Virus record (IMG/VR): IMGVR_UViG_3300025687_000189
Location: 1-32,062 of that record
DNA length: 32,062 bases
Strand: one strand, 5' to 3'
DNA from: a virus
Lineage: Duplodnaviria > Caudoviricetes
Below, piece after piece: positions 11,628-23,020 of this stretch; within the stretch, counting starts at the first letter, position 1; each line of letters begins with the position of its first letter. The notes under the pieces were generated by a model. That model did no database searches. It had not been told where the DNA came from and saw only the letters and a program-made list of their open reading frames with translations. A program made the translations under genes and the position numbers.

Positions 11628-12656
11628 ATGGGACGCAGAGACAACGCATATTCTGGCTGGATGAATCCAGGGCTTGCCGAGGGGTTTAGCAATCTCTCCA
11701 AAGCAATGTTTGGCTCTGCGACTGACGACAATGTTGCAGCGGCAGCTGCGGCCAACCGTGAATTAGCGCGTAAGCGCGGCATCGAGGCAGACAACGCAGC
11801 GGATGCGCGTTCAGCGTATCAGGCCGTTATGCCGTATATGGGTGACGTGCTCCTTAATGGCCTGCCTACGCTTCCTCAGTATGCCGACGCGCCGAGCCAG
11901 GAAGGCGCAATGATTGCTGCTGAGAACCCAGAGCTGGAAGGCTTGGCTGCACCAGACCGTGTGATGACTGCGCCAACCGGCGGCGGTTATGACATGGAAA
12001 AGATTGGCGCATTGGCGAACGCCATGATGCTGAATCCGCAAGAAACGCAAAGAATGTGGCAGAGCTTTGGGGGTGCGCGTGGATTTGATGCTGCGCAGAA
12101 TGCTCCAGAAGATATGGCGCGCTGGTTGCCGATCTTTGCTGGCGGCGGAATGCCGACCCAGAATTTCTCTCCAACGCCTCAGCGCGGTGATGCAATTCGC
12201 GAGCAGGCGGTGCAGGGCAATATGCGTCGCGATGCTGCAAAGCCACAAGCGCAAAACAGCAAAGCCAACTCAATGGGCGACAAGGTATTTAAGGCGGTCA
12301 ACGAAGGCATCCAGGGCATTGTTGAAGAGTTTGGTTTCAAAAATAACGACGCTGGTGCGCAGTCTCAGCTTGAATCCGCTGCAATCGAGATAACCAAGCA
12401 AACGCAGAATCCAGTCGCGGCGGTATTGGCAATACGCCAGGCGCTAAGAGACGGAGCTCCGGTCTTTGGTGTCGGCACGAAGGATATTGACAATAATTTC
12501 TTCAATATCTTTGCTGCGAACGACCACACCAAACTGGTAATGGGACAGCAGGGAAGCACTCCGCCAGTACCGGGTGAGATCCAAAAACTTCCATCAGGCA
12601 TTTATCGATTCAAGGGTGGCGATCCCACAGTACCTGGTAGCTGGGAGAAACTTTAA
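11628..12656 (+). CDS. Putative internal virion protein
   Basis: Abuts both neighbours, no Cys, ends in YRFKGGDPTVPGSWEKL. Confidence 0.7.
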   Translation: MGRRDNAYSGWMNPGLAEGFSNLSKAMFGSATDDNVAAAAAANRELARKRGIEADNAADARSAYQAVMPYMGDVLLNGLPTLPQYADAPSQEGAMIAAENPELEGLAAPDRVMTAPTGGGYDMEKIGALANAMMLNPQETQRMWQSFGGARGFDAAQNAPEDMARWLPIFAGGGMPTQNFSPTPQRGDAIREQAVQGNMRRDAAKPQAQNSKANSMGDKVFKAVNEGIQGIVEEFGFKNNDAGAQSQLESAAIEITKQTQNPVAAVLAIRQALRDGAPVFGVGTKDIDNNFFNIFAANDHTKLVMGQQGSTPPVPGEIQKLPSGIYRFKGGDPTVPGSWEKL

Positions 12657-15600
12657 TGGCTGGCGCTCAGTTCCCGTGGGAGCAGTACGGTGAGGCCGCT
12701 GCTCCGGCCCCAGAAGCGCCTGTAGCAAAGGCAATCGAAGCGCCACTTGCTCAGCCTATTTACCCTTGGGAGCAAACTTTTTCGGGGCCATCCAGCGATC
12801 GCATGTCGCCTCCTCCCCCCCAGGGCGACCCGCAAGGGATGGTTGTGCCGCCCACCTATCAAACGCCGGACGTGATGATTCCGCATGTTGGCGATGAGTA
12901 CCGCGAACAGCCTCTTATGACCCACGATGGGCTGCCTGCTCGCCTAAACAGCGATGGCAGCTACTCAACGGAAGTCAGCATTACGGTTACTGACCCTCGA
13001 TTGAATGGCGGCTTGCCGACCAACATTCCTTCGCTTTGGGGAGGCAAGGAGCTTAATGAATATGACGCAGTAACCGCTGCGCTTTCTTCTGGCAACAAGT
13101 ACCCATCATTTGGCTCGATTGATGACGCCGTGGCGGCAGCTAAGGCAAGGTCTGCGGCTGGGGGCGCATCAGCACCACAAGTCCCGCCGCCTCCGGTACA
13201 GCAAGAGGAGAATTCGAGTTTCTGGGAAAACGTGATGAGCGCCCCAGGCAATTTCTACGATCGCCTGCAACCACCCCAGCAAGTAAAGATCATCGATGAC
13301 GTTACTGGCGGCTATCTTGGCCGTTACTCAGGTCGCGGTGTGGACAACATGCGCAAGCAAGGCAACCTGCTGGCAGCGCTTACTGGTGTCCTGAGCCCAG
13401 AAGAGTTTGCAGCGAATATTGCCGAAATCAATCGCACCATGACGCCTCGCGATCCAAGCGTCGAAGCTGGATTGAAAGAGATCGGTGACGCAGAAGGTTT
13501 CTGGAATTCGTTTTGGGAAGTTCTGACTAACCCGAAAGCGACAGGTGCTGTCGTTCTTGAATCGCTGCCGCAGTCCGTGCCGATCATTGGTGGCGGTATT
13601 GCTGGTGGTACTGCTGGTGCAGCGACCCCGGTTCCTGGCGGCGCAATCGTTGGTGCTGGCGCAGGCGCAGGCACGATGAGCTTCGCGGTTGAGTACCTGA
13701 ATACGGTCCTCGAGCAGATGGAGCAAGCCGGCGTCGATATGAACGATCCGCAAAAGATCGTTGCTGCGTTCCAAAACGAAGAGCTGATGGCCAAAGCAAA
13801 GGAAAGCGGCGTTAAGCGCGGCATTCCAATCGCCATCTTCGATGCCATTTCAATGGGGCTGGCCAGTCGCATTGCAGCGCCGACAAGAAAAGTCGTGAAG
13901 GCTGCTGGTGCTGGCGACAAAACAGCGAAGGTTGCAGGTGCTACTGCTGAAATCGGAACCCAAGCTGGACTTGGCGGCGGCGGCGAAGCTGCGGCCCAGC
14001 TTAATGAAAAAGGCAAGATCGACAACATGGGCGAAGTCGTCCTTGAAGGTGTTGCCGAGGCTGTAACAGGTGTCGGGGAAATTGGTGCAAACCAAGCCAT
14101 CGACGCGATGACCCCGGATGGCGTAAAGATTGGGCGCGAAATGCAGCGCCAAGTCGATTCGATGCAGCCAGTACCGGGCGCAGCAGAACAAACAGCGCGC
14201 CAAGCGCTTGATCCCGAGAATGCTCAGCTGCGTGTTGTGCAATTCCCCTGGGAGCAGTACGGCGAAGGCGCACCACTTCCAGGCGCTGTGACTGCCGGCA
14301 TGAACGAGCAGGCCGACAAGCCAGAGCCAGAGCCGCAGCCCGTTGAACAAGTAGCGCAGCCGCAAGTTCAAACTGTGAACCCGCAGATGCCGCAGCAGTT
14401 TGCGCCGCAGCAAATGCAGCCGCAGCCGCAAGTTCAAGGCGTAAGTCCGATCGAGTCGCCCAATGCCGGAGGCACGCTGGCGGCGAATCAGGGACAGGTT
14501 TCTACTGTCACCGGGCAGAAGATCGACGTGAATTACGAGATCGTCGAAGGCAAGAATTTGCGCCAAGCTACCGCAGACTTGCAGCCGCGCGATCGCGAGC
14601 GTGCATCGAGTGATGCGCAGATTCGTGAGATTGCGACCGGCTTAGATCCGCAGCGCCTTGGTTATTCCGCAGAAGCAGATCGTGGTGCGCCGATCATTGG
14701 CCCAGACAACATTATCGAATCAGGTAATGGCCGCGTTCGCGCAATCAACATGGCTTATGACATGAGCGGAGCTCAAGCAGAAGCCTATCGCCGCTTCCTC
14801 GTGCAGTCTGGATTCCCAGAAGCCGCAAACATGGAGCGCCCGGTCCTGGTTCGTCGTCGCACTACACAGATGGACGACAACCAGCGTCGCCAGTTCGTCA
14901 TTGAGGCGAATCAGTCTGCGACGATGAGCATGAGCAGCACCGAGCAGGCTGGATCTGACACCGCCAAAATGACCATGCAGGTTATGGGGGCTTGGCGTGG
15001 TGGCGAAGTCACCAGCGCCGCAAACCGTGATTTCGTCCGTAAGTTCATCGAAAGCGTGGTCCCGGCGTCTGAGCGCAATCAGATGATGGGTCGCGACGGA
15101 CAGCTGAGCATCGACGGCAAGCGCCGTATTGAGAATGCGATGCTGGGCAAAGCGTTTGAGAATCCAGAAATCCTGGCTCAAATGACTGAATCGACCGACA
15201 ACAATATTCGCTCAATCTCAGGGGCGTTGCTGGACATTGCTGGCCGCTGGGCGCAGATGCGCGACGAGATCAATGCGGGCCGCATTCCAGCTGAGTACGA
15301 TGTCACCCCGCAGTTGGTAGAGGCGGCGCAGGCTGTAAGCCAGATGCGAGCAGAAAATCTGTCTGCTGCGGATTGGGTCGCTCAAGAGGATATGCTGAAT
15401 CCGCGCGATCCGGTGACGGTGGCGCTCGTTAAGAGCTTCTTCGATGCGCGCCTGACAAGAGCAGCTGGGCGTGACAAGATTGTGGACGTACTGAATGGGT
15501 ACGTCGATACCGTCATGGAGCAGAGCACCGAATCCATGTTCGGCGACCAGGTGCAGCCGGTCGATGTCATCGAGCAGCGCACCAACATCAGAAACCAGGA

Positions 15601-18600
15601 GGCTCAAGGTGGCCAGCAACAAACTCTCTTCACCCAAGGCGCGGGCGGTATTGGCGCAAGCGCTAGTAACAACAGCGGAAGCCAAGGGCGTACCCCATTA
15701 CAAGGAAATCGCCAAGGAGCTGCTGGCGAAGGGCAAGGAGCAGGCACAGCTGGAGACGCCGGAAATGCCGAAACCGCGCAGCGTCCGGAAGGGTCGCAGA
15801 ACCAGCGCACCGACACCCAAGCCAGTCCGGTAGAGGGTAGCGAGCAGACCCAGGACGATGGGCAGCCAGCTGGCTACCTCGACAAGAAGGATATTGAGGA
15901 TCTAACCAAGGACGATCCAGCCTTGGCGGCTGTGGTAGCCGCGCCAGAAGAAAGGGTTATCACCGAAAACCGCGCCAAAAAGCACGGATTCATGTCGCAA
16001 GAAGAAGCGAACGACATGATCGGCCTTTGGCGCGAAAACGCTCTCAACGAGGGCGAGACTCTATCCATTGCCGCAGACAACAGCGACAAATATGTAATTT
16101 CCCTGTTTGACTCAACTGGAATGTGGGCGCGTCCCTGGGCGGAAGCCGGATACAACGTCATTACGATTGACCTGGTTGGCGACCCGAACAACCCAACCAT
16201 TTCGATCAACGGCGAAGAAGGCGACATCAGCAATCTGAATGTTGAGTGGTTTCAGAAAATGGGCGTCGATGATGCCTGGGCTGTTCTTGCGGCGTGTCCC
16301 TGTACGGATTTCGCTGCGAGCGGCGCGCGCTGGTGGGGCGAAAAGGACGCCACGGGCCAGACCGAGAAATCAAAAGAGCTGGTCTATCAGACCATGCGCG
16401 TGATTGAGTATTTGCGTCCGCCTGTTTGGGCAATCGAAAACCCTGTTGGTCGGATTGAAAAGCAGACCGGACTGCCTCCGTACCGGATGTCGTTCAATCC
16501 AAATCATTTCGGCAACCCATACACGAAAAAGACACTTCTCTGGGGTAGCTTCAACGCTGAGCTTCCGCTGGCTCCGGTCGAGCCAACCGAAGGCTCGAAG
16601 ATGCACAGCAAGTACGGCGGCAGCAGCGCAAGAACGAAGGCTGCGCGCTCTGCAACTCCAGAAGGTTTTGCCTACTCGTTCTTTAATGCAAACAGCTATA
16701 ACAGGTTAAAACCGGCAGAAAGAACGCACCTCAGATTCCCGGCAATCGACAAGCAGCTGATCTTCAAGTCGCTGTTGTCTGGCATGTCGGAGCGCGATCT
16801 TGCTACTGCAATCGAAGATCAGTATTACGACGGCGACATTGAGGCCGCAGAAAAGATACTGTCAGACTTCATCGCAGAGAAAGACGCGAGCGATCTTAAG
16901 AAACGTGGCAATGACGACGAAGCCGCGCAAAGAAAGAAGGATCTTGATGATGCGCTGCTCCAAGCCATGCTTGGCGGAAGGCTCAAGGATGAAGCCCCCA
17001 GCAGCACTTCTAAGGCAGACGCTGGCCGCGAAAAGAACCAGCGTTTCCGTGGAACGCAAACGCAGAACCTGGAAACTGTTGCCAGCTTCACCAAGCGCAC
17101 CTCGATCTATGAGAACGCTTTTTATGAGCTAGGCGCAGATCCTGCGAAGGCGTCTTTGTGGTCGCCGGTACGCCAGTTCGATTTCCTCGCGAAAGGGCTG
17201 CGCGATACCTACCAGCTGAGCTTTGTGCAGAAAACCAAGCGCGCCAACATTCGCGAAGGCATCGACCAGCTGCTCGACGGTTATCGCAACATGCAGTTTA
17301 TGGCGCATGTTCTGGATCTTCCTTCCAGCGCAATCGGCCTTGAAGGAACCCTGGGTTTGGTGCTGCGCAGAAATGTTGAGTACCTGGGCGCGTACTATCC
17401 GCATGGTGGTCCGATTGAAGGCGTGATTACTGATGCGCCAACAATCTCAATTCCGCGTCGCTCAAATAGCTTTGCGCATGAGTGGGGCCATGCTTTCGAT
17501 TACTGGCTGATGGGCAAATACGCCGAAGGCGAGCTGCAAGGCACGCTGTCTGCGGCGGTGCGTACAGGCGAGCCGGTAAGCGACGTCATGCCACAAGATG
17601 TTAAGGAGTCGTTCACCCTGCTGATGCGGACCCTGTTCTTTGATCGGGCCGCTGAGGCGCAGCAGATCATGGACCTTGAGCGCAAAATCGAGGTAGCCAA
17701 GACCGATGAGGCGCGCAAGAAGTACCAGGACCAGCTGGATAAAGTTCTGTCCGGCCAGTCCAAGAGCCGCAAAGACCGCAGCGATTACTACAAGCAGCAA
17801 GAACAATATGTGAAGCGCCGTGGCGGCGATCTGGACTACTGGCGCAAGCCGACGGAAATGCTGGCGCGTGCGTTTGAAGCGTATGTCAGTTTCAAGGTCG
17901 AAGCCGCAGGCGGATCAACCGAGTTCATTGGTAAGGGCTCGGAAGCCTACCAATCCGACGCGACTGATCGTCTTGAGCTGACTTTCCCCAAGAACAGCGA
18001 CCGTTTCAACATCTTCCGCGCATTCGACTTGCTGTTTGATTCGGTACACCGCGAGAAGGTGTTTAAGGATGGCTCGTCTGCCGCGCGTCCGCGGGATGTC
18101 ATCCTGTCGAACCCGGCGACCTATTTCCGCGACTCAATCAATACTAAAAACACCACACTCAAGGGCGTGTTCCAAGGCGAAATGGAGCAGATGCAGCGGG
18201 AAGTTCGTCAATGGAAGGCGTTTTGGAATCGCCCCAGCGACGGTCTGGGGCCGGTTGAGCGCGTAGGTCGCGCGCTTGAAGGGGTTTATCGCACCAATCG
18301 TGGCGCTGTGCTCAAGATGGAAAAGCGCTATCGCAAGCGTGGCAACAACGCAGCAGGCAATGCGATCTGGAACATCACCAAGCGCCTAGCGTCTGACCCT
18401 GGCGCGGGCCGCTCGACCTTCGATGGTGGCACTTACACCGAAGCGCTCGATCGCGAAATGATGCGTTACGAGAATCGCTTGGATGGGCTGATCGAGCGTC
18501 ATGGCATTTTGGATTTCACCGAGAAGGAGCAGGCTGAGCTGCGCAGCGTACTGACCGCGCAGGGTGTCGAAGCCAACAGCGCCAGTCCGAAGGTGGCCGA

Positions 18601-20812
18601 AGCCGGTGCTGCGTTGCGCCGCTACATGAATGATCTCTATAGCTACATGCAGAACAAGGGTCTGGATGTTGGCTACCTTGAGGACCAGGGCTACCTGACC
18701 CGCATCTTGGATGAGGCGTCGGTGATCGAAAACTGGGAGGATTTTGTTAAAGACGCCAAGAAGGTGTACGAGGTTGTGTTCGATCGCGACGCGATCGGAT
18801 TTGAGGATGGCATCACCCGCGAGGCAATCAATGACTTGATGAAGTTTGGGCGCGAGGCGCGCATTGACTTCAAGAGCGATGATTTCAAAGCCTTCCGCCA
18901 GGCGCGCAATAAACTAAACCGCTTGCTGCGTGCGCTGGATGCTGCCAACAACGAAGGCGACGCTGACAAGGTGGCTGAGGCAGAGGCTGCGCTCGATCAG
19001 TTCTTAGAGGAAAACGCCGACTTATTCCAAGAGACCTATGAAAAGGTCCGCGACATTTGGGCTGAGGCTGCTGCGAATAATTGGGCGGGTCGCATTATGT
19101 TCGGCTCGCCAGAGGGCTGGGACAGCAACTCACCGCGTGGCAACTTTATGAAGCAGCGCAAGCTGCCGCCGGAAGCCGACAAGCTCCTGGACGCCTGGTA
19201 TATCGCTGATCCGTTGGAGCGCGTTCGCACTTATACCCGCGCAGCGATTCGCAAGACCGAGTACAACCTGCGCTTTGGCAAGCCAGCAGGGTCGCGTGGC
19301 AATTCACAGCTGCATGATCTGCTCGAGGGCTTGGTCGAGTCGGGGGTGAGCAAGGCGGATCGCGCATTCATTGAAAAGATCATTGCTCAAGAAACTGGCA
19401 CGGTCCGCAGCGGACTGCCAGGCGGGCTCGAGGCGGGACTGGATAACTTCCGTACCGTATCGGCGATTACGCTGTTGGGTCGCGTTGTGCTGACCTCGCT
19501 GGTTGAGCCGCTTACGGTGGGGCTGCAAACCGGCAAGGCGTTTGATGGCTTGAAGGGTCTGGCGATGACGATTCAAGAGATCATGCCGACCGCAACGGTG
19601 CGGGATCGTCGTGCGCTGGCACGCGCCCTGGGGATTGTGGCCAATCCGATGACCGCAGAAATGCTGAGCAATCGAATCGGGGGCCAGCACAAAGAGTCGC
19701 GGATTGTTACGCGCGCAGCGGGTGGGTATTACCGCCGTGTTGGTTTGACTGGATTGACCAACGCGCAGCGCCGCAGCTCGATGCAGCTGGGTATCAACTA
19801 CTTCTATTCGCTGTCTGAGGTGATCTTGGACGAGCGTGCGACGGACAGCGAGAAGGATGCGGCGCGTCGTGAGCTGATGGATTTTGGCTTGCAGGAATCC
19901 CAGCTGGATGAGTTTGCAGCCTGGATGACGCAGTTCGACGATCGCTTGCCGACCCCGGAAGAGGTAACGGATGTCGATGGTCGTCTGACCGATTTTGGCG
20001 AAATGCTGGCGACTGGGATTGGTCGTTTGACTACGCAATCGATCCAGGTTCCGCGTGGCATGGATGCGCCGTTCTTTGCGAATACGCCGATTGGCCGTAT
20101 TACGTTCATGCTGCTGCGCTTCTCGATGGCGTTCTTCCGCAACATCATCATCAAGAATGTCAAAAAGGTGCAGCGTGAGTCTGCTGCGCGTGGCAAGTTG
20201 GCGGGTGCAAATGTTGCGGCGCGTCAGTTTGTAGCGCCTTTGGCTTTGTTGTATGCCGGCCATGTGGTGCTGAGCATTGCGCGCGAGATCATCTTCAACC
20301 CGGATCGCTGGGAGGAGGAGAAGGAGAAAAACGACAAGAATCCGAGTGCGTTTTATCGCGCAACCGGGATTCCGAATTACATCTGGGGCTTGTCGTTCTC
20401 GCGTGCGGGTTTCACAGGGATTGCGGACCCGGTGTACAACGCGATTTATGGGCTACGGTATCAGCGCGACCTGGCTAATGTTTTCATTGGTGCGGGTGGT
20501 GCGTGGTTCTTTGGGGATCTCCAGGCGATCTTGGAGGGTTTCCAGCGTAACAGCGATGCGAACAATCGCACGGAGACGCGACAGATCAAGGCGGCGTATG
20601 AGATTACGGCGCAGCCGGCGATGGCGTTGTTGACTGGCTTGCTGCCGGCGGGTCGGGCGACGGGTTATGGCTTGGGTGCGTTGTACGGTTATCTCTCGAG
20701 TCCTGCGTTTAAGTCGCAGTTTGCGGAGTGGTTTGTGGGTCCGCAAGATCCGAAGGGGAAGCGTAGTAGTCGTTCGAGTGGTGGCGCGTCAGAGGGCTAC
20801 CGTATCAAATAG
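12656..20812 (+). CDS. Giant polyvalent internal virion protein (2718 aa): Gly-zipper region, ddrB/ParB-like domain, C5-cytosine methyltransferase, HExxH/LPD1-like domain, helical C-terminus
   Basis: LQPRDR...GAPIIGPDNIIESGNGR (~14579-14735). ISLFDSTG, CPCTDF (16295) and IENPVG (E at 16436). AHEWGHAFD (H at 17477) with EMLARAFEAYV (17855). Last gene of the structural operon. Confidence 0.85.
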   Translation: MAGAQFPWEQYGEAAAPAPEAPVAKAIEAPLAQPIYPWEQTFSGPSSDRMSPPPPQGDPQGMVVPPTYQTPDVMIPHVGDEYREQPLMTHDGLPARLNSDGSYSTEVSITVTDPRLNGGLPTNIPSLWGGKELNEYDAVTAALSSGNKYPSFGSIDDAVAAAKARSAAGGASAPQVPPPPVQQEENSSFWENVMSAPGNFYDRLQPPQQVKIIDDVTGGYLGRYSGRGVDNMRKQGNLLAALTGVLSPEEFAANIAEINRTMTPRDPSVEAGLKEIGDAEGFWNSFWEVLTNPKATGAVVLESLPQSVPIIGGGIAGGTAGAATPVPGGAIVGAGAGAGTMSFAVEYLNTVLEQMEQAGVDMNDPQKIVAAFQNEELMAKAKESGVKRGIPIAIFDAISMGLASRIAAPTRKVVKAAGAGDKTAKVAGATAEIGTQAGLGGGGEAAAQLNEKGKIDNMGEVVLEGVAEAVTGVGEIGANQAIDAMTPDGVKIGREMQRQVDSMQPVPGAAEQTARQALDPENAQLRVVQFPWEQYGEGAPLPGAVTAGMNEQADKPEPEPQPVEQVAQPQVQTVNPQMPQQFAPQQMQPQPQVQGVSPIESPNAGGTLAANQGQVSTVTGQKIDVNYEIVEGKNLRQATADLQPRDRERASSDAQIREIATGLDPQRLGYSAEADRGAPIIGPDNIIESGNGRVRAINMAYDMSGAQAEAYRRFLVQSGFPEAANMERPVLVRRRTTQMDDNQRRQFVIEANQSATMSMSSTEQAGSDTAKMTMQVMGAWRGGEVTSAANRDFVRKFIESVVPASERNQMMGRDGQLSIDGKRRIENAMLGKAFENPEILAQMTESTDNNIRSISGALLDIAGRWAQMRDEINAGRIPAEYDVTPQLVEAAQAVSQMRAENLSAADWVAQEDMLNPRDPVTVALVKSFFDARLTRAAGRDKIVDVLNGYVDTVMEQSTESMFGDQVQPVDVIEQRTNIRNQEAQGGQQQTLFTQGAGGIGASASNNSGSQGRTPLQGNRQGAAGEGQGAGTAGDAGNAETAQRPEGSQNQRTDTQASPVEGSEQTQDDGQPAGYLDKKDIEDLTKDDPALAAVVAAPEERVITENRAKKHGFMSQEEANDMIGLWRENALNEGETLSIAADNSDKYVISLFDSTGMWARPWAEAGYNVITIDLVGDPNNPTISINGEEGDISNLNVEWFQKMGVDDAWAVLAACPCTDFAASGARWWGEKDATGQTEKSKELVYQTMRVIEYLRPPVWAIENPVGRIEKQTGLPPYRMSFNPNHFGNPYTKKTLLWGSFNAELPLAPVEPTEGSKMHSKYGGSSARTKAARSATPEGFAYSFFNANSYNRLKPAERTHLRFPAIDKQLIFKSLLSGMSERDLATAIEDQYYDGDIEAAEKILSDFIAEKDASDLKKRGNDDEAAQRKKDLDDALLQAMLGGRLKDEAPSSTSKADAGREKNQRFRGTQTQNLETVASFTKRTSIYENAFYELGADPAKASLWSPVRQFDFLAKGLRDTYQLSFVQKTKRANIREGIDQLLDGYRNMQFMAHVLDLPSSAIGLEGTLGLVLRRNVEYLGAYYPHGGPIEGVITDAPTISIPRRSNSFAHEWGHAFDYWLMGKYAEGELQGTLSAAVRTGEPVSDVMPQDVKESFTLLMRTLFFDRAAEAQQIMDLERKIEVAKTDEARKKYQDQLDKVLSGQSKSRKDRSDYYKQQEQYVKRRGGDLDYWRKPTEMLARAFEAYVSFKVEAAGGSTEFIGKGSEAYQSDATDRLELTFPKNSDRFNIFRAFDLLFDSVHREKVFKDGSSAARPRDVILSNPATYFRDSINTKNTTLKGVFQGEMEQMQREVRQWKAFWNRPSDGLGPVERVGRALEGVYRTNRGAVLKMEKRYRKRGNNAAGNAIWNITKRLASDPGAGRSTFDGGTYTEALDREMMRYENRLDGLIERHGILDFTEKEQAELRSVLTAQGVEANSASPKVAEAGAALRRYMNDLYSYMQNKGLDVGYLEDQGYLTRILDEASVIENWEDFVKDAKKVYEVVFDRDAIGFEDGITREAINDLMKFGREARIDFKSDDFKAFRQARNKLNRLLRALDAANNEGDADKVAEAEAALDQFLEENADLFQETYEKVRDIWAEAAANNWAGRIMFGSPEGWDSNSPRGNFMKQRKLPPEADKLLDAWYIADPLERVRTYTRAAIRKTEYNLRFGKPAGSRGNSQLHDLLEGLVESGVSKADRAFIEKIIAQETGTVRSGLPGGLEAGLDNFRTVSAITLLGRVVLTSLVEPLTVGLQTGKAFDGLKGLAMTIQEIMPTATVRDRRALARALGIVANPMTAEMLSNRIGGQHKESRIVTRAAGGYYRRVGLTGLTNAQRRSSMQLGINYFYSLSEVILDERATDSEKDAARRELMDFGLQESQLDEFAAWMTQFDDRLPTPEEVTDVDGRLTDFGEMLATGIGRLTTQSIQVPRGMDAPFFANTPIGRITFMLLRFSMAFFRNIIIKNVKKVQRESAARGKLAGANVAARQFVAPLALLYAGHVVLSIAREIIFNPDRWEEEKEKNDKNPSAFYRATGIPNYIWGLSFSRAGFTGIADPVYNAIYGLRYQRDLANVFIGAGGAWFFGDLQAILEGFQRNSDANNRTETRQIKAAYEITAQPAMALLTGLLPAGRATGYGLGALYGYLSSPAFKSQFAEWFVGPQDPKGKRSSRSSGGASEGYRIK

Positions 20813-20831
20813 GTTGTGTACCAAAAATCTG

Positions 20832-20860
20832 TTGATCCGGCGTATGGAAATCGCTATAGT
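20832..20860 (+). promoter_or_regulatory. Sigma70 promoter pointing into the attP tRNA 5' half
   Basis: TTGATC (20832-20837), 17 bp, TATAGT (20855-20860), followed by GC-rich discriminator TCGCTCCG. Confidence 0.7.
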
Positions 20861-20941
20861 TCGCTCCGCATTAAGTATAGAACGCAACGAAAAGCGCAAC
20901 TGATATTTAATACAGCGAAAATCAGACACGGGAAGGGCTCA

Positions 20942-20954
20942 TAACCCCTTGATT
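20942..20954 (-). promoter_or_regulatory. IHF binding site in the attP left arm
   Basis: TAACCCCTTGATT; reverse complement AATCAAGGGGTTA matches WATCAANNNNTTR exactly. A weaker inverted copy TAGCAAGGGGTAG lies at 21056-21068. Confidence 0.65.
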
Positions 20955-20977
20955 CCAAACATGATTTTCGAGACCAT

Positions 20978-21016
20978 GCGGGAATAGCTCAGTTGGTAGA
21001 GCACAACCTTGCCAAG
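20978..21016 (+). other. attP: attP core: 5' half of tRNA-Gly(GCC), not a complete tRNA
   Basis: GCGGGAATAGCTCAGTTGGTAGAGCACAACCTTGCCAAG covers the acceptor 5' strand, D arm and anticodon loop (GCC). No T arm or 3' acceptor strand follows. About 100 bp from the integrase stop. Confidence 0.88.
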
Positions 21017-21034
21017 TCGGGCATCAGACAGTCT

Positions 21035-21161
21035 GTCATACACAAAATGGCGTAGTAGCAAGGGGTAGAGCAGAGTTTGTATGACGTTGTATGACGATCA
21101 TACAGCTCATTCTGCGTTTTATTGAGCTAAAAACGCAGCGTTGCGTTTTTCAGAAAACGCA
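21035..21161. repeat. attP right-arm repeats (candidate Int arm-type / Xis sites)
   Basis: TTGTATGACG twice in tandem (21077-21096), inverted GTCATACA (21035-21042) and ATCATACA (21097-21104). Alternating TGCGTTTT/AAAACGCA at 21113, 21130, 21142 and 21154. Confidence 0.7.
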
Positions 21162-22240
21162 TCAGACAACCCGACAATCGGGGCGCTACCTGCGCGCAAG
21201 CTGTTGATCGCTCCGCGTAGATAGTTCGGCTGGTAGTGCAGGTAATTCTTCTCAACAGTCTTAATGCTGTCGCCTAGAATTTGTGCAATCTCAACCATCG
21301 ACACTCCATTCATTGCCAGGCGTGACGCAAGGTTATGCCGGAATGTGTGTGCCGTAATTTCAGCCAGACCCAGCTGCTCACGCATCCGGTCAAACGACTT
21401 TCTGATCGCGCCAGGATGGAACAACACATAGTCCGTTTTGGCTTCAATCTTCGCCCGCTTTAGGATCGGCAGCAGGTAGTCGCTGATCGGTACGACCGGG
21501 CGTCGTTTGTTGGTCTGGGATCGACCGTAGGGGTTCAGCGTAATCAGCTGCCGCTGGAAATCGACCTGCTCCCATTTCAACTCACGCAGCGTAATCGAGC
21601 GCGCCCCGGTTTCGAGCAGCAGCCAGACATACAAGCTCAGGCGCGGGATCGTCGAGGGAGAGGCGGGCGGTTTGATGTAGTTCTGGATGATCTCCAACTC
21701 GTCGTCATGCACGATCCGATGTCTGGAATCCGGACGCGGCGGCATATTGATATGACACAGCGATCTCGGATCGACGCGCAGCGCCCTGGGCTCGACACGC
21801 TTGGACATGAAATTGAACACGGCGCGCATGATGGTCAGCTCTTTCAGCAGCGTACCGTCACCCACCGGCTTGTGTCCTTTCCATCCGCGACGGCGCTTGT
21901 CGCAGTACGCGCGGATGTCCTGGGCTTCGATCGTGTCGATCTCCATGTTCCCGAAATAGCTATTCAGGTTGTTCCCGACATAGCCGATCTCTTTCTGGGC
22001 GACGGAGTGGACCGTAACGTGCTGGTCGAAATACAGCTCGAAACACGCATCGAAGGTTAGGATCGTCCGCTTGATCTGCTCCTCTTCGCGTGCGCTTAAC
22101 CAGCCTTTGAGGCGATTTTGCGCTTCCTGTAAATCGCTCGTCCGAAGGCTTTGTCTTTTGCTTCGGCCATCCTCGTTGAAGAGGACATACCAGCCGCCGT
22201 TGAACTCTGCGAGCCTCGGCGGCAGCTCTTTTCTTGGCAT
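21119..22240 (-). CDS. int: Tyrosine integrase
   Basis: N-terminal arm-binding-type domain, catalytic ETGAR, HTFRH and C-terminal LGDS...KNY. Confidence 0.95.
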   Translation of the reverse strand: MPRKELPPRLAEFNGGWYVLFNEDGRSKRQSLRTSDLQEAQNRLKGWLSAREEEQIKRTILTFDACFELYFDQHVTVHSVAQKEIGYVGNNLNSYFGNMEIDTIEAQDIRAYCDKRRRGWKGHKPVGDGTLLKELTIMRAVFNFMSKRVEPRALRVDPRSLCHINMPPRPDSRHRIVHDDELEIIQNYIKPPASPSTIPRLSLYVWLLLETGARSITLRELKWEQVDFQRQLITLNPYGRSQTNKRRPVVPISDYLLPILKRAKIEAKTDYVLFHPGAIRKSFDRMREQLGLAEITAHTFRHNLASRLAMNGVSMVEIAQILGDSIKTVEKNYLHYQPNYLRGAINSLRAGSAPIVGLSDAFSEKRNAAFLAQ

Positions 22241-22404
22241 AATTGCTCCTGTATGTAGTGGTTTAGCGAGGTTTCTACAATCATCGTTGGCGCGCGTCCG
22301 CGTCCAGGCAGATACTCGAGCTGGCCCCGCTTACGCAGCTCGGCAACGAATCGTTTGCTGCGCCCAATCCTGGACGCAGCTTCTTTCTCAGTTATCAACT
22401 TCAT
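22096..22404 (-). CDS. xis: Excisionase-like helix-turn-helix protein
   Basis: LITEKEAASRIGRSKRFVAELRKRGQLEY is a MerR/HTH_17-type Xis signature; basic; overlaps the int start. Confidence 0.75.
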   Translation of the reverse strand: MKLITEKEAASRIGRSKRFVAELRKRGQLEYLPGRGRAPTMIVETSLNHYIQEQLCQEKSCRRGSQSSTAAGMSSSTRMAEAKDKAFGRAIYRKRKIASKAG

Positions 22405-22807: not shown

Positions 22808-22838
22808 GGTTATCTCCTTCGTAATTGTAGTTTGTGTG

Positions 22839-23004
22839 GGACAAGTTGTCCGACACCCAACTGATACTATACAGACATATTGTAGGTGTCAATTCGTCCT
22901 ACAACCTTATGAAACGCTTATATTGTCTAGGATCAGAAAATTTGATCGCAGAATTTGCGGACATTGTGTCTGTATGAAAGCCGACAGTTGGTTGACAAAG
23001 TGTC
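22839..23004. promoter_or_regulatory. Operator array of the lysis/lysogeny switch (GACA-N3-TGTC)
   Basis: GACAAGTTGTC 22840-22850, GACATATTGTA 22874-22884 (1 mismatch), GACATTGTGTC 22960-22970, GACAAAGTGTC 22994-23004. Confidence 0.8.
22864..22892 (-). promoter_or_regulatory. Leftward promoter for repressor-xis-int
   Basis: Minus strand TTGACA (22892-22887), 17 bp, TAGTAT (22869-22864). Confidence 0.75.
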
Positions 23005-23020
23005 GCTCATCAATTTTAAT
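22992..23020 (+). promoter_or_regulatory. Rightward early lytic promoter
   Basis: TTGACA (22992-22997), 17 bp, TTTAAT (23015-23020). Confidence 0.75.

Follow-up and report, generated by a model that had tools for sequence, protein, structure and literature searches.

A phage attachment site that carries the 5' half of a tRNA-Gly(GCC) gene downstream of a conserved promoter-like site

Which promoter transcribes a host tRNA gene once a phage has integrated through the 5' half of that gene? The promoter that attP sites of this kind must supply has received little attention so far. The question is raised by the window analyzed here (the whole stretch of DNA, a 32,062-base virus record), in which terminase, portal, capsid, and giant virion-associated genes on the plus strand are followed by an integrase gene (int) and a candidate excisionase gene (xis) on the minus strand. 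The locus presents a specific and conserved candidate promoter in front of a tRNA that usually leads a tRNA-Cys gene. Judged from its sequence, we consider it likely that integration rebuilds the tRNA at the late-gene end and that the conserved promoter-like site of the phage (20832-20860) drives the rebuilt gene.

By capsid protein, the only similar named phages were Microcystis phage Mae-Yong1326-1 (47%) and Rhizobium phage RHph_N65 (43%). Sampled words of the att region, half or more of them present, were found in 20 public runs among the matches listed, from freshwater, estuary, and marine metagenomes; none of these runs was an RNA data set. Three further assemblies (L061 to L063; the window itself is L060) had the same core, and the integrase of L061 was 92% identical to that of the window. 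Similarity between the window and L061 or L062 began at the late-gene stop (boundary 20811); in these two relatives, the module of promoter-like site, att, and int was joined to a different late-gene end (window 20811-20850). In run X1, the contig depth doubled from 20830 onward, hinting at a further variant.

The initial annotation had described 39 bp of the 5' half of tRNA-Gly(GCC) ending just past the anticodon loop, and the match was indeed exact: positions 20978-21016 correspond to nucleotides 1 to 39 of the tRNA and run from the acceptor 5' strand through the D arm and the anticodon 5' strand to the loop TTGCCAA (21009-21015) plus one further base. The identity of the core to a host tRNA gene takes in the 7-nucleotide loop, and attP holds the 5' part of the tRNA without the 3' part. 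ARAGORN found no complete tRNA in the window (a 32-kb contig and hence an incomplete genome), and an Rfam search gave a chance hit only. The exact 39-mer was present in 110 of 301 genomes and its reversed control in none; the sample was drawn from one class, that of a "Candidatus Thiodiazotropha" genome, which we take to be the Gammaproteobacteria, and the count takes in two unpublished genomes (G045 and G302). In all 30 host loci inspected, the tRNA 3' half (GTTGGGG...), missing from the phage, followed the 39-mer. The next gene was tRNA-Cys in 22 of these loci, 14 of which also had tRNA-Leu(TAA); in the remaining loci, the target was followed by a second tRNA-Gly gene (1 locus), stood alone (4 loci), or was cut (3 loci). 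The expectation that the target tRNA heads an operon was thus borne out, as it usually leads a Gly-Cys(-Leu) cluster. Position 20977, just outside the tRNA, was T in the window and C in most other assemblies. In estuary runs holding the phage, the 39-mer also occurred as an abundant separate unitig (depth of 1700 versus 13 to 22 in run X9).

The core is flanked by arm-type repeats and a putative site for a bending protein (Table 1), as indicated by sequence repeats and by a perfect match, at 20942-20954 on the minus strand and likewise perfect in L061, to what we take to be the IHF consensus. The same tandem pair of left arm repeats was found in 16 of 17 loci examined. All 39 core positions were identical in the window and L061, yet the flanks were identical at only 5 of 9 and 3 of 6 positions. 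The core ends 102 nucleotides from the int stop codon and so lies outside the int frame. In an alignment of 44 homologues, integrase residues R214, H298, R301, and Y333 did not vary, and the second His position was Asp throughout; the usual LGH motif reads LGD, with G323 and D324 invariant (P0001). Because the 39-bp core lies between arm repeats and a predicted IHF site and faces an intact tyrosine integrase gene, 20978-21016 and its surroundings can be securely assigned, from this architecture, as the attP of a temperate aquatic phage.

Table 1. Positions of features in and around the attachment region of the window, with identity to the relative L061 where given
Feature	Position	Strand	Remark
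Gene for a giant virion-associated protein (2718 aa)	12656..20812	+	ddrB-ParB, LPD1, and methyltransferase-like domains; stop codon is the left edge of the integration module
A-tract 5' of the -35 box, putatively UP-element-like	20821..20831	+	10/11 identical in L061
Sigma-70-type promoter-like site TTGATC-17-TATAGT, candidate replacement promoter	20832..20860	+	9/12 matches
G+C-rich discriminator, predicted start near 20867	20861..20868	+	5/8 identical in L061, still G+C-rich
Left arm-type repeat pair (A/G)CGCAA, putative Int arm-binding sites	20881..20900		21/23 identical in L061
ATCAGACA repeat, candidate accessory-factor site	20921..20928, 21023-21030, 21161-21168		Repeat family D4; kept in L061
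attP common core, 5' half (nt 1-39) of tRNA-Gly(GCC)	20978..21016	+	39/39 identical in L061
GTATGAC/GTCATAC repeats between core and right arm, candidate Xis sites	21035..21105		Similar repeats in relatives
Right arm-type repeats	21112..21161		Overlap int stop codon; hairpin-forming on both strands
Tyrosine integrase, 373 aa, intact	21119..22240	-	PF00589 above cut-off
Candidate excisionase (HTH)	22096..22404	-	phrog_66, E 8e-5; PF12728 below curated cut-off

The proposal that crossover separates the tRNA from its host promoter follows from the geometry for any exchange within the 39 bp, and since any such exchange gives the same two sides, the exact crossover point is immaterial to the outcome. 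On one side, the host promoter would be left with the 5' half alone, directed toward the int 3' end; on the other, phage DNA would precede the whole tRNA and then any host tRNA-Cys and tRNA-Leu genes. The narrower claim of a crossover in the anticodon loop held for a sister integrase (55% identical), and no junction was found for the phage of the window. Two sister loci, L001 and L065, were 98.4% identical over 4262 bases and diverged just past the anticodon loop of tRNA-Val(CAC); beyond this point, L065 continued with a tRNA 3' half, a hairpin resembling a terminator, and cellular-type genes (thioesterase and Fe-S). To judge by their sequences, L001 and L065 are an attP and its junction, which shows that the sister integrase crosses over at the anticodon loop. 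On the basis of this pair, the integrase of the window likely recombines at the anticodon loop as well, with a predicted 7-bp overlap at 21009-21015. The loci L197 and L240 were 86 to 90% identical over the late genes to the 5'-half phages L011 and L012 and ran from the arms through the 5' half into 11 nucleotides of the tRNA-Val(GAC) 3' half, where the contig ended. L011 turned to phage DNA where L197 entered the 3' half, and its half tRNA ended at the loop. L197 and L240 look like the expected late-gene junction and are possibly the integrated form, an ambiguous case; L197 could also be a phage whose tRNA copy is longer, or its assembly may have run on into a host tRNA. Motif scans (of 96 and of 21 loci) returned only L011, L012, and L197 as relevant, and a further scan brought up these three contigs again.

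A scan of genomes for lysogens yielded three loci from 46 candidates, two at 25 to 27% identity and one a 36-residue fragment at a contig end. The metagenome scan yielded four loci at at least 90%, one of them the window, all with an intact attP and with no integrated copy. Neither the tRNA half nor the promoter nor the end of the giant protein gave a hit in scans of viral records, from which near ones may be missing. Contigs of seven public runs contained no phage-host joints, an absence that is uninformative on lysogeny because the contigs break at the 39-bp repeat.

The promoter-like hexamers were present, as first annotated, about 120 bp upstream of the core, and no phage gene was found behind them: int lies on the opposite strand, and there is no open reading frame of a recognized family between the promoter-like site and int. 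The presence of such a site would by itself be modest evidence. Overall, a promoter scan found 4 sites versus 2.0 +/- 1.6 in shuffled sequence, which is not above chance, and at least 9 of 12 matches were reached by 11 of 3000 75-nucleotide stretches drawn at random from the window and by 203 of 3000 shuffled versions of the local 75 nucleotides. The main support comes from conservation. L061 and L062 have TTGATC-17-TATATT at the same place, despite an unrelated upstream gene (33/73), and 20821-20860 was identical at 35 of 40 positions between the window and L061, compared with 0.63 to 0.65 at four-fold sites of int (binomial P of about 0.001 at a neutral identity of 0.65 and 0.009 at 0.70, for limits set after the alignment had been viewed). 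This test involves one independent relative, as L061 and L062 are near-identical there, and within it the phage-supplied site was conserved above the neutral rate.

The site differed from the host promoters that it might replace. Scored on a matrix from 25 host tRNA-Gly promoters, it reached 6.7 and ranked 8 of 192198 placements in the window, and the host promoters reached 13.6 to 24.2 (n = 25), scores that are inflated because the hosts were scored on their own matrix; the best-scoring sites in AT-rich relatives of another layout reached up to 6.0. TTGAC was found in 25 of 25 host promoters and a 16-bp spacer in 20 of 25, at 11 to 25 nucleotides from the tRNA. The phage site lies about 117 nucleotides from the half tRNA, outside the arms. 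What stood of the proposed stable-RNA-like character was the G+C-rich discriminator, which is real (6/8 G+C; 7/8 in L061) but unremarkable in a genome of 55% G+C; the -35 box TTGATC and the 17-bp spacer are unlike those of most host tRNA-Gly promoters. By these comparisons, the phage site is a poorer match than the host tRNA-Gly promoters, and it is not exclusive to the 5'-half layout. At the same position, the 3'-half relatives L002, L095, and L018 had 9, 8, and 6 of 12 matches, respectively, and the 5'-half phages L011 and L197 had 6 and 7. Another 5'-half relative, L075, had a host-like TTGACA-17-TAAACT 14 nucleotides before its half tRNA, inside the arms.

These comparisons bear on a different history, in which the promoter-like site would be older and mainly phage serving (convergent or antisense, facing int) and would have enabled the switch to a 5' half, with transcription of the tRNA as a side effect. 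We regard this as unlikely. In its favor, the 3'-half locus L002 has a site with 9 of 12 matches in the equivalent place, also directed toward int, L095 shares the -10 box of that site, and in -35 box, spacer, and distance, the phage site is no copy of host tRNA promoters; against this, L002 and L095 differ in the -35 box, L018 has only 6 matches, and since tRNA-Cys lies behind the target in 22 of 30 host loci, there would be selection for tRNA expression whatever the origin of the site. Decidedly unlikely, in our view, is that the hexamers are not a working promoter at all and that either read-through within the prophage makes the tRNA or a second tRNA-Gly copy makes the rebuilt one dispensable. 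The frequency of such sites in local shuffles would fit this, as would L011 and L197, which have the same layout without a clear site, and the 8 of 110 genomes in which the target occurs in two exact copies; it is opposed by the conservation above the neutral rate and by the single exact copy in 102 of the 110 genomes (many of which are drafts). Late genes should be silent in a lysogen, which likewise speaks against read-through from those upstream. That the 39 bp are left over from a tRNA gene once carried by the phage, or are an assembly artifact, rather than an active att core is very improbable, since, although relatives carry whole tRNA genes near att (a decayed one in L019) and public-run contigs break at this repeat, the core is identical in phages that differ on both sides of it, sits between arm repeats, recurs in L061 to L063, and ends one base past the loop, comparable to the half tRNA of L011 ending at the loop.

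In the preferred reading, transcription of the rebuilt tRNA from the phage site, Int, IHF, and probably Xis would assemble on about 20880-21160, and strands would be exchanged at 21009-21015. Transcription of the rebuilt tRNA and its operon would then likely be driven by the site at 20832-20860, with a leader of about 110 nucleotides spanning the arm and IHF sites (leader plus tRNA half, fold z of -2.2). RNase P would remove this leader. The phage promoter is probably weaker than the host promoter that it would replace, as suggested by the matrix scores. In 22 of 30 host loci, the gene behind the target is tRNA-Cys, which is usually essential and present once, and a lysogen at such a locus would need a new promoter. 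The detached host promoter would in a lysogen face the 3' end of int about 100 nucleotides past the core, and a terminator scan found none on the plus strand between core and int. The initial annotation had proposed antisense transcription into int from the excised circle; such transcription would not be confined to that state, and the pressure on int would be greater, and indeed greatest, in the lysogen because there the host promoter faces int with no clear terminator between. Hairpins at 21112-21161 were considered as a terminator shielding int from antisense transcription; they coincide with the arm repeats, and none is claimed. A second promoter-like site, TCAACA-17-TAGAAT, lies inside int at 21252-21280 (plus strand), antisense to int, and scored 10.5, above the att promoter-like site (6.7).

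An extension of the preferred reading, which we consider quite unlikely, is that the two-way exchange of promoters acts as a switch. The host tRNA-Gly-Cys-Leu operon would come under the weaker phage promoter, with a leader crossing Int arm and IHF sites, so that Int occupancy would tune host tRNA supply, and the strong host tRNA promoter would make an RNA headed by the tRNA half and antisense to int, tying excision to growth rate and the stringent response. If the exchange were regulatory in this way, essential host tRNAs would be supplied at a level set by the prophage.

Integration through a 5' tRNA half is uncommon but already described, and the window is a further case. Zhao and Williams reportedly described in 2002 a Mesorhizobium loti element with a 5' tDNA fragment. 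In the accessible text of the surveys, a 5' fragment was found in 159 of 3919 islands by Islander (PMC4383910) and in 9 of 88 cases in Sinorhizobium meliloti (PMC11476347), and targeting of the 5' part is given as the minority case (PMC6563490, PMC1635311, PMC11476347). These islands share the reversed orientation of the target with the window; they are integrated elements, whereas here we have a free attP with a promoter-like site checked for conservation. The pelagiphages are alike in that attP, next to int, contains the 5'-terminal part of a host tRNA gene (about 40 bp) and that integration rebuilds the tRNA: as far as the available text of the reports goes, the core of HTVC028P lies downstream of int, is 40 bp long, and corresponds to the 5' end of tRNA-Asn, and PCR confirmed the junctions (PMC8477408); HTVC019P-type phages mix 5'-end rebuilding and whole-tRNA replacement in one group (10.1101/410191). 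They differ in phage family, host, and tRNA, and the replacement promoter is unaddressed in the main texts of both reports, from which the word "promoter" is absent (Fig. S2 of the latter may show upstream sequence).

Myxococcus phage Mx9 (OQ709411.1) has a 5' half of tRNA-Gly(CCC) with TTGACG-17-TATACC about 14 nucleotides upstream and thus resembles the window in that a tRNA-Gly 5' half runs antisense to int and is closely preceded by a promoter-like site; it differs in anticodon, in the distance of that site, and in an attP inside int. From pTN3-, Mx8-, and Mx9-type sites, all inside int, the window differs by its core 102 nucleotides beyond the int stop codon. For archaeal elements of the pTN3 type, the portion of the report available describes an attB that is a tRNA 5' half and a rebuilt tRNA expressed from an element promoter, seldom met in bacteria (PMC8371274); there the promoter is, per the same text, that of the integrase itself and int is split on integration, whereas int of the window stays whole and faces the other way. 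In tRNA-dependent lysogeny, as outlined in the accessible part of PMC10865867, a short anticodon core is combined with a whole phage tRNA, which fits the sisters L001, L003, L004, L013, and others, unlike the window with its 39-bp core and no whole tRNA. IMEVchUSA3 at dusA and SXT at prfC are stated in the available text of PMC8409611 to insert at the 5' end of a gene and supply a new promoter, measured in the dusA element to be weaker than the native one; their targets are protein genes and not a tRNA operon. The accessible portions of PMC9934374 and PMC11610982 contain nothing on tRNA promoters. In the literature searched, which covered few subscription papers, we found no case in which a phage promoter dedicated to a rebuilt bacterial tRNA had been measured.

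Layouts of relatives with integrases 43% or more identical, classed by eye and with duplicates kept, indicated that one integrase clade uses 3' halves, 5' halves, and whole tRNA copies. A 5' half opposite to int was found in L060 to L063 (Gly GCC) and in L011, L012, L067, L068, and L075 (Val GAC), and a 3' half in line with int was found in L002, L095, and L018. Fourteen loci (L001, L003 to L006, L013, L014, L016, L017, L066, L069 to L071, and L076) combined a short anticodon core with a whole tRNA-Val(CAC) just outside the arm. L065 and L072 were a junction or junction-like; L007, L008, L015, L064, and L074 were cut too short to class; L019 had an ambiguous layout; and L073 repeated the match of L018. 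The 5'-half loci fell on three branches of a 33-row tree, and the fewest layout changes numbered 6. An independent origin of the 5'-half layout is not claimed, because an AU test (21 rows) left a single clade unrejected (P = 0.27 and 0.25). With its three ways of keeping the target tRNA working, the clade is a convenient set for studying flips of att sites and changes of target.

Several of these relatives are of interest in their own right. The whole tRNA-Val(CAC) lies outside the far arm and in line with the target (L001:4359-4433, L004:4337-4411, L013:4354-4428, and 11 more), and a junction of this layout is at L065:4215-4330. Once the phage is integrated, transcription from the host promoter could pass the broken half and reach the phage copy, an arrangement that from its sequence is possibly tRNA-dependent lysogeny outside the Actinobacteria and possibly one without a phage promoter. 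L075 (2183-2400) has a tRNA-Val(GAC) 5'-half attP whose arms enclose its host-like promoter and a terminator-like hairpin in reverse orientation, which looks as if upstream host DNA had been captured. In L019 (4047-4400), a decayed 3' remnant of tRNA-Val(CAC) lies beside three arm repeats and the core matches no tRNA (by eye), possibly reflecting a target switch. A more distant subclade provided a junction/attP pair (L101:3398-3474 and L093:3972-4200), with an intact tRNA-Pro(TGG) followed by phage DNA and a core at the tRNA 3' end, opposite to int.

In the window itself, divergent strong promoter-like sites at 22824-22892 (minus strand) and 22992-23020 (plus strand) lie between xis and the early genes and had the top matrix score on each strand; no repressor was recognized among the adjoining open reading frames. 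An extra open reading frame between int and att shifts attP about 400 nucleotides away in L003, L006, L007, L015, and L071, and RHph_N65 has an annotated HNH endonuclease where the L003-type loci have this frame. RHph_N65 (L262:3200-3760) also has similar arm repeats and, by eye, a tRNA-Thr(CGT) 3' half in line with int, an arrangement that by its sequence is the classic layout.
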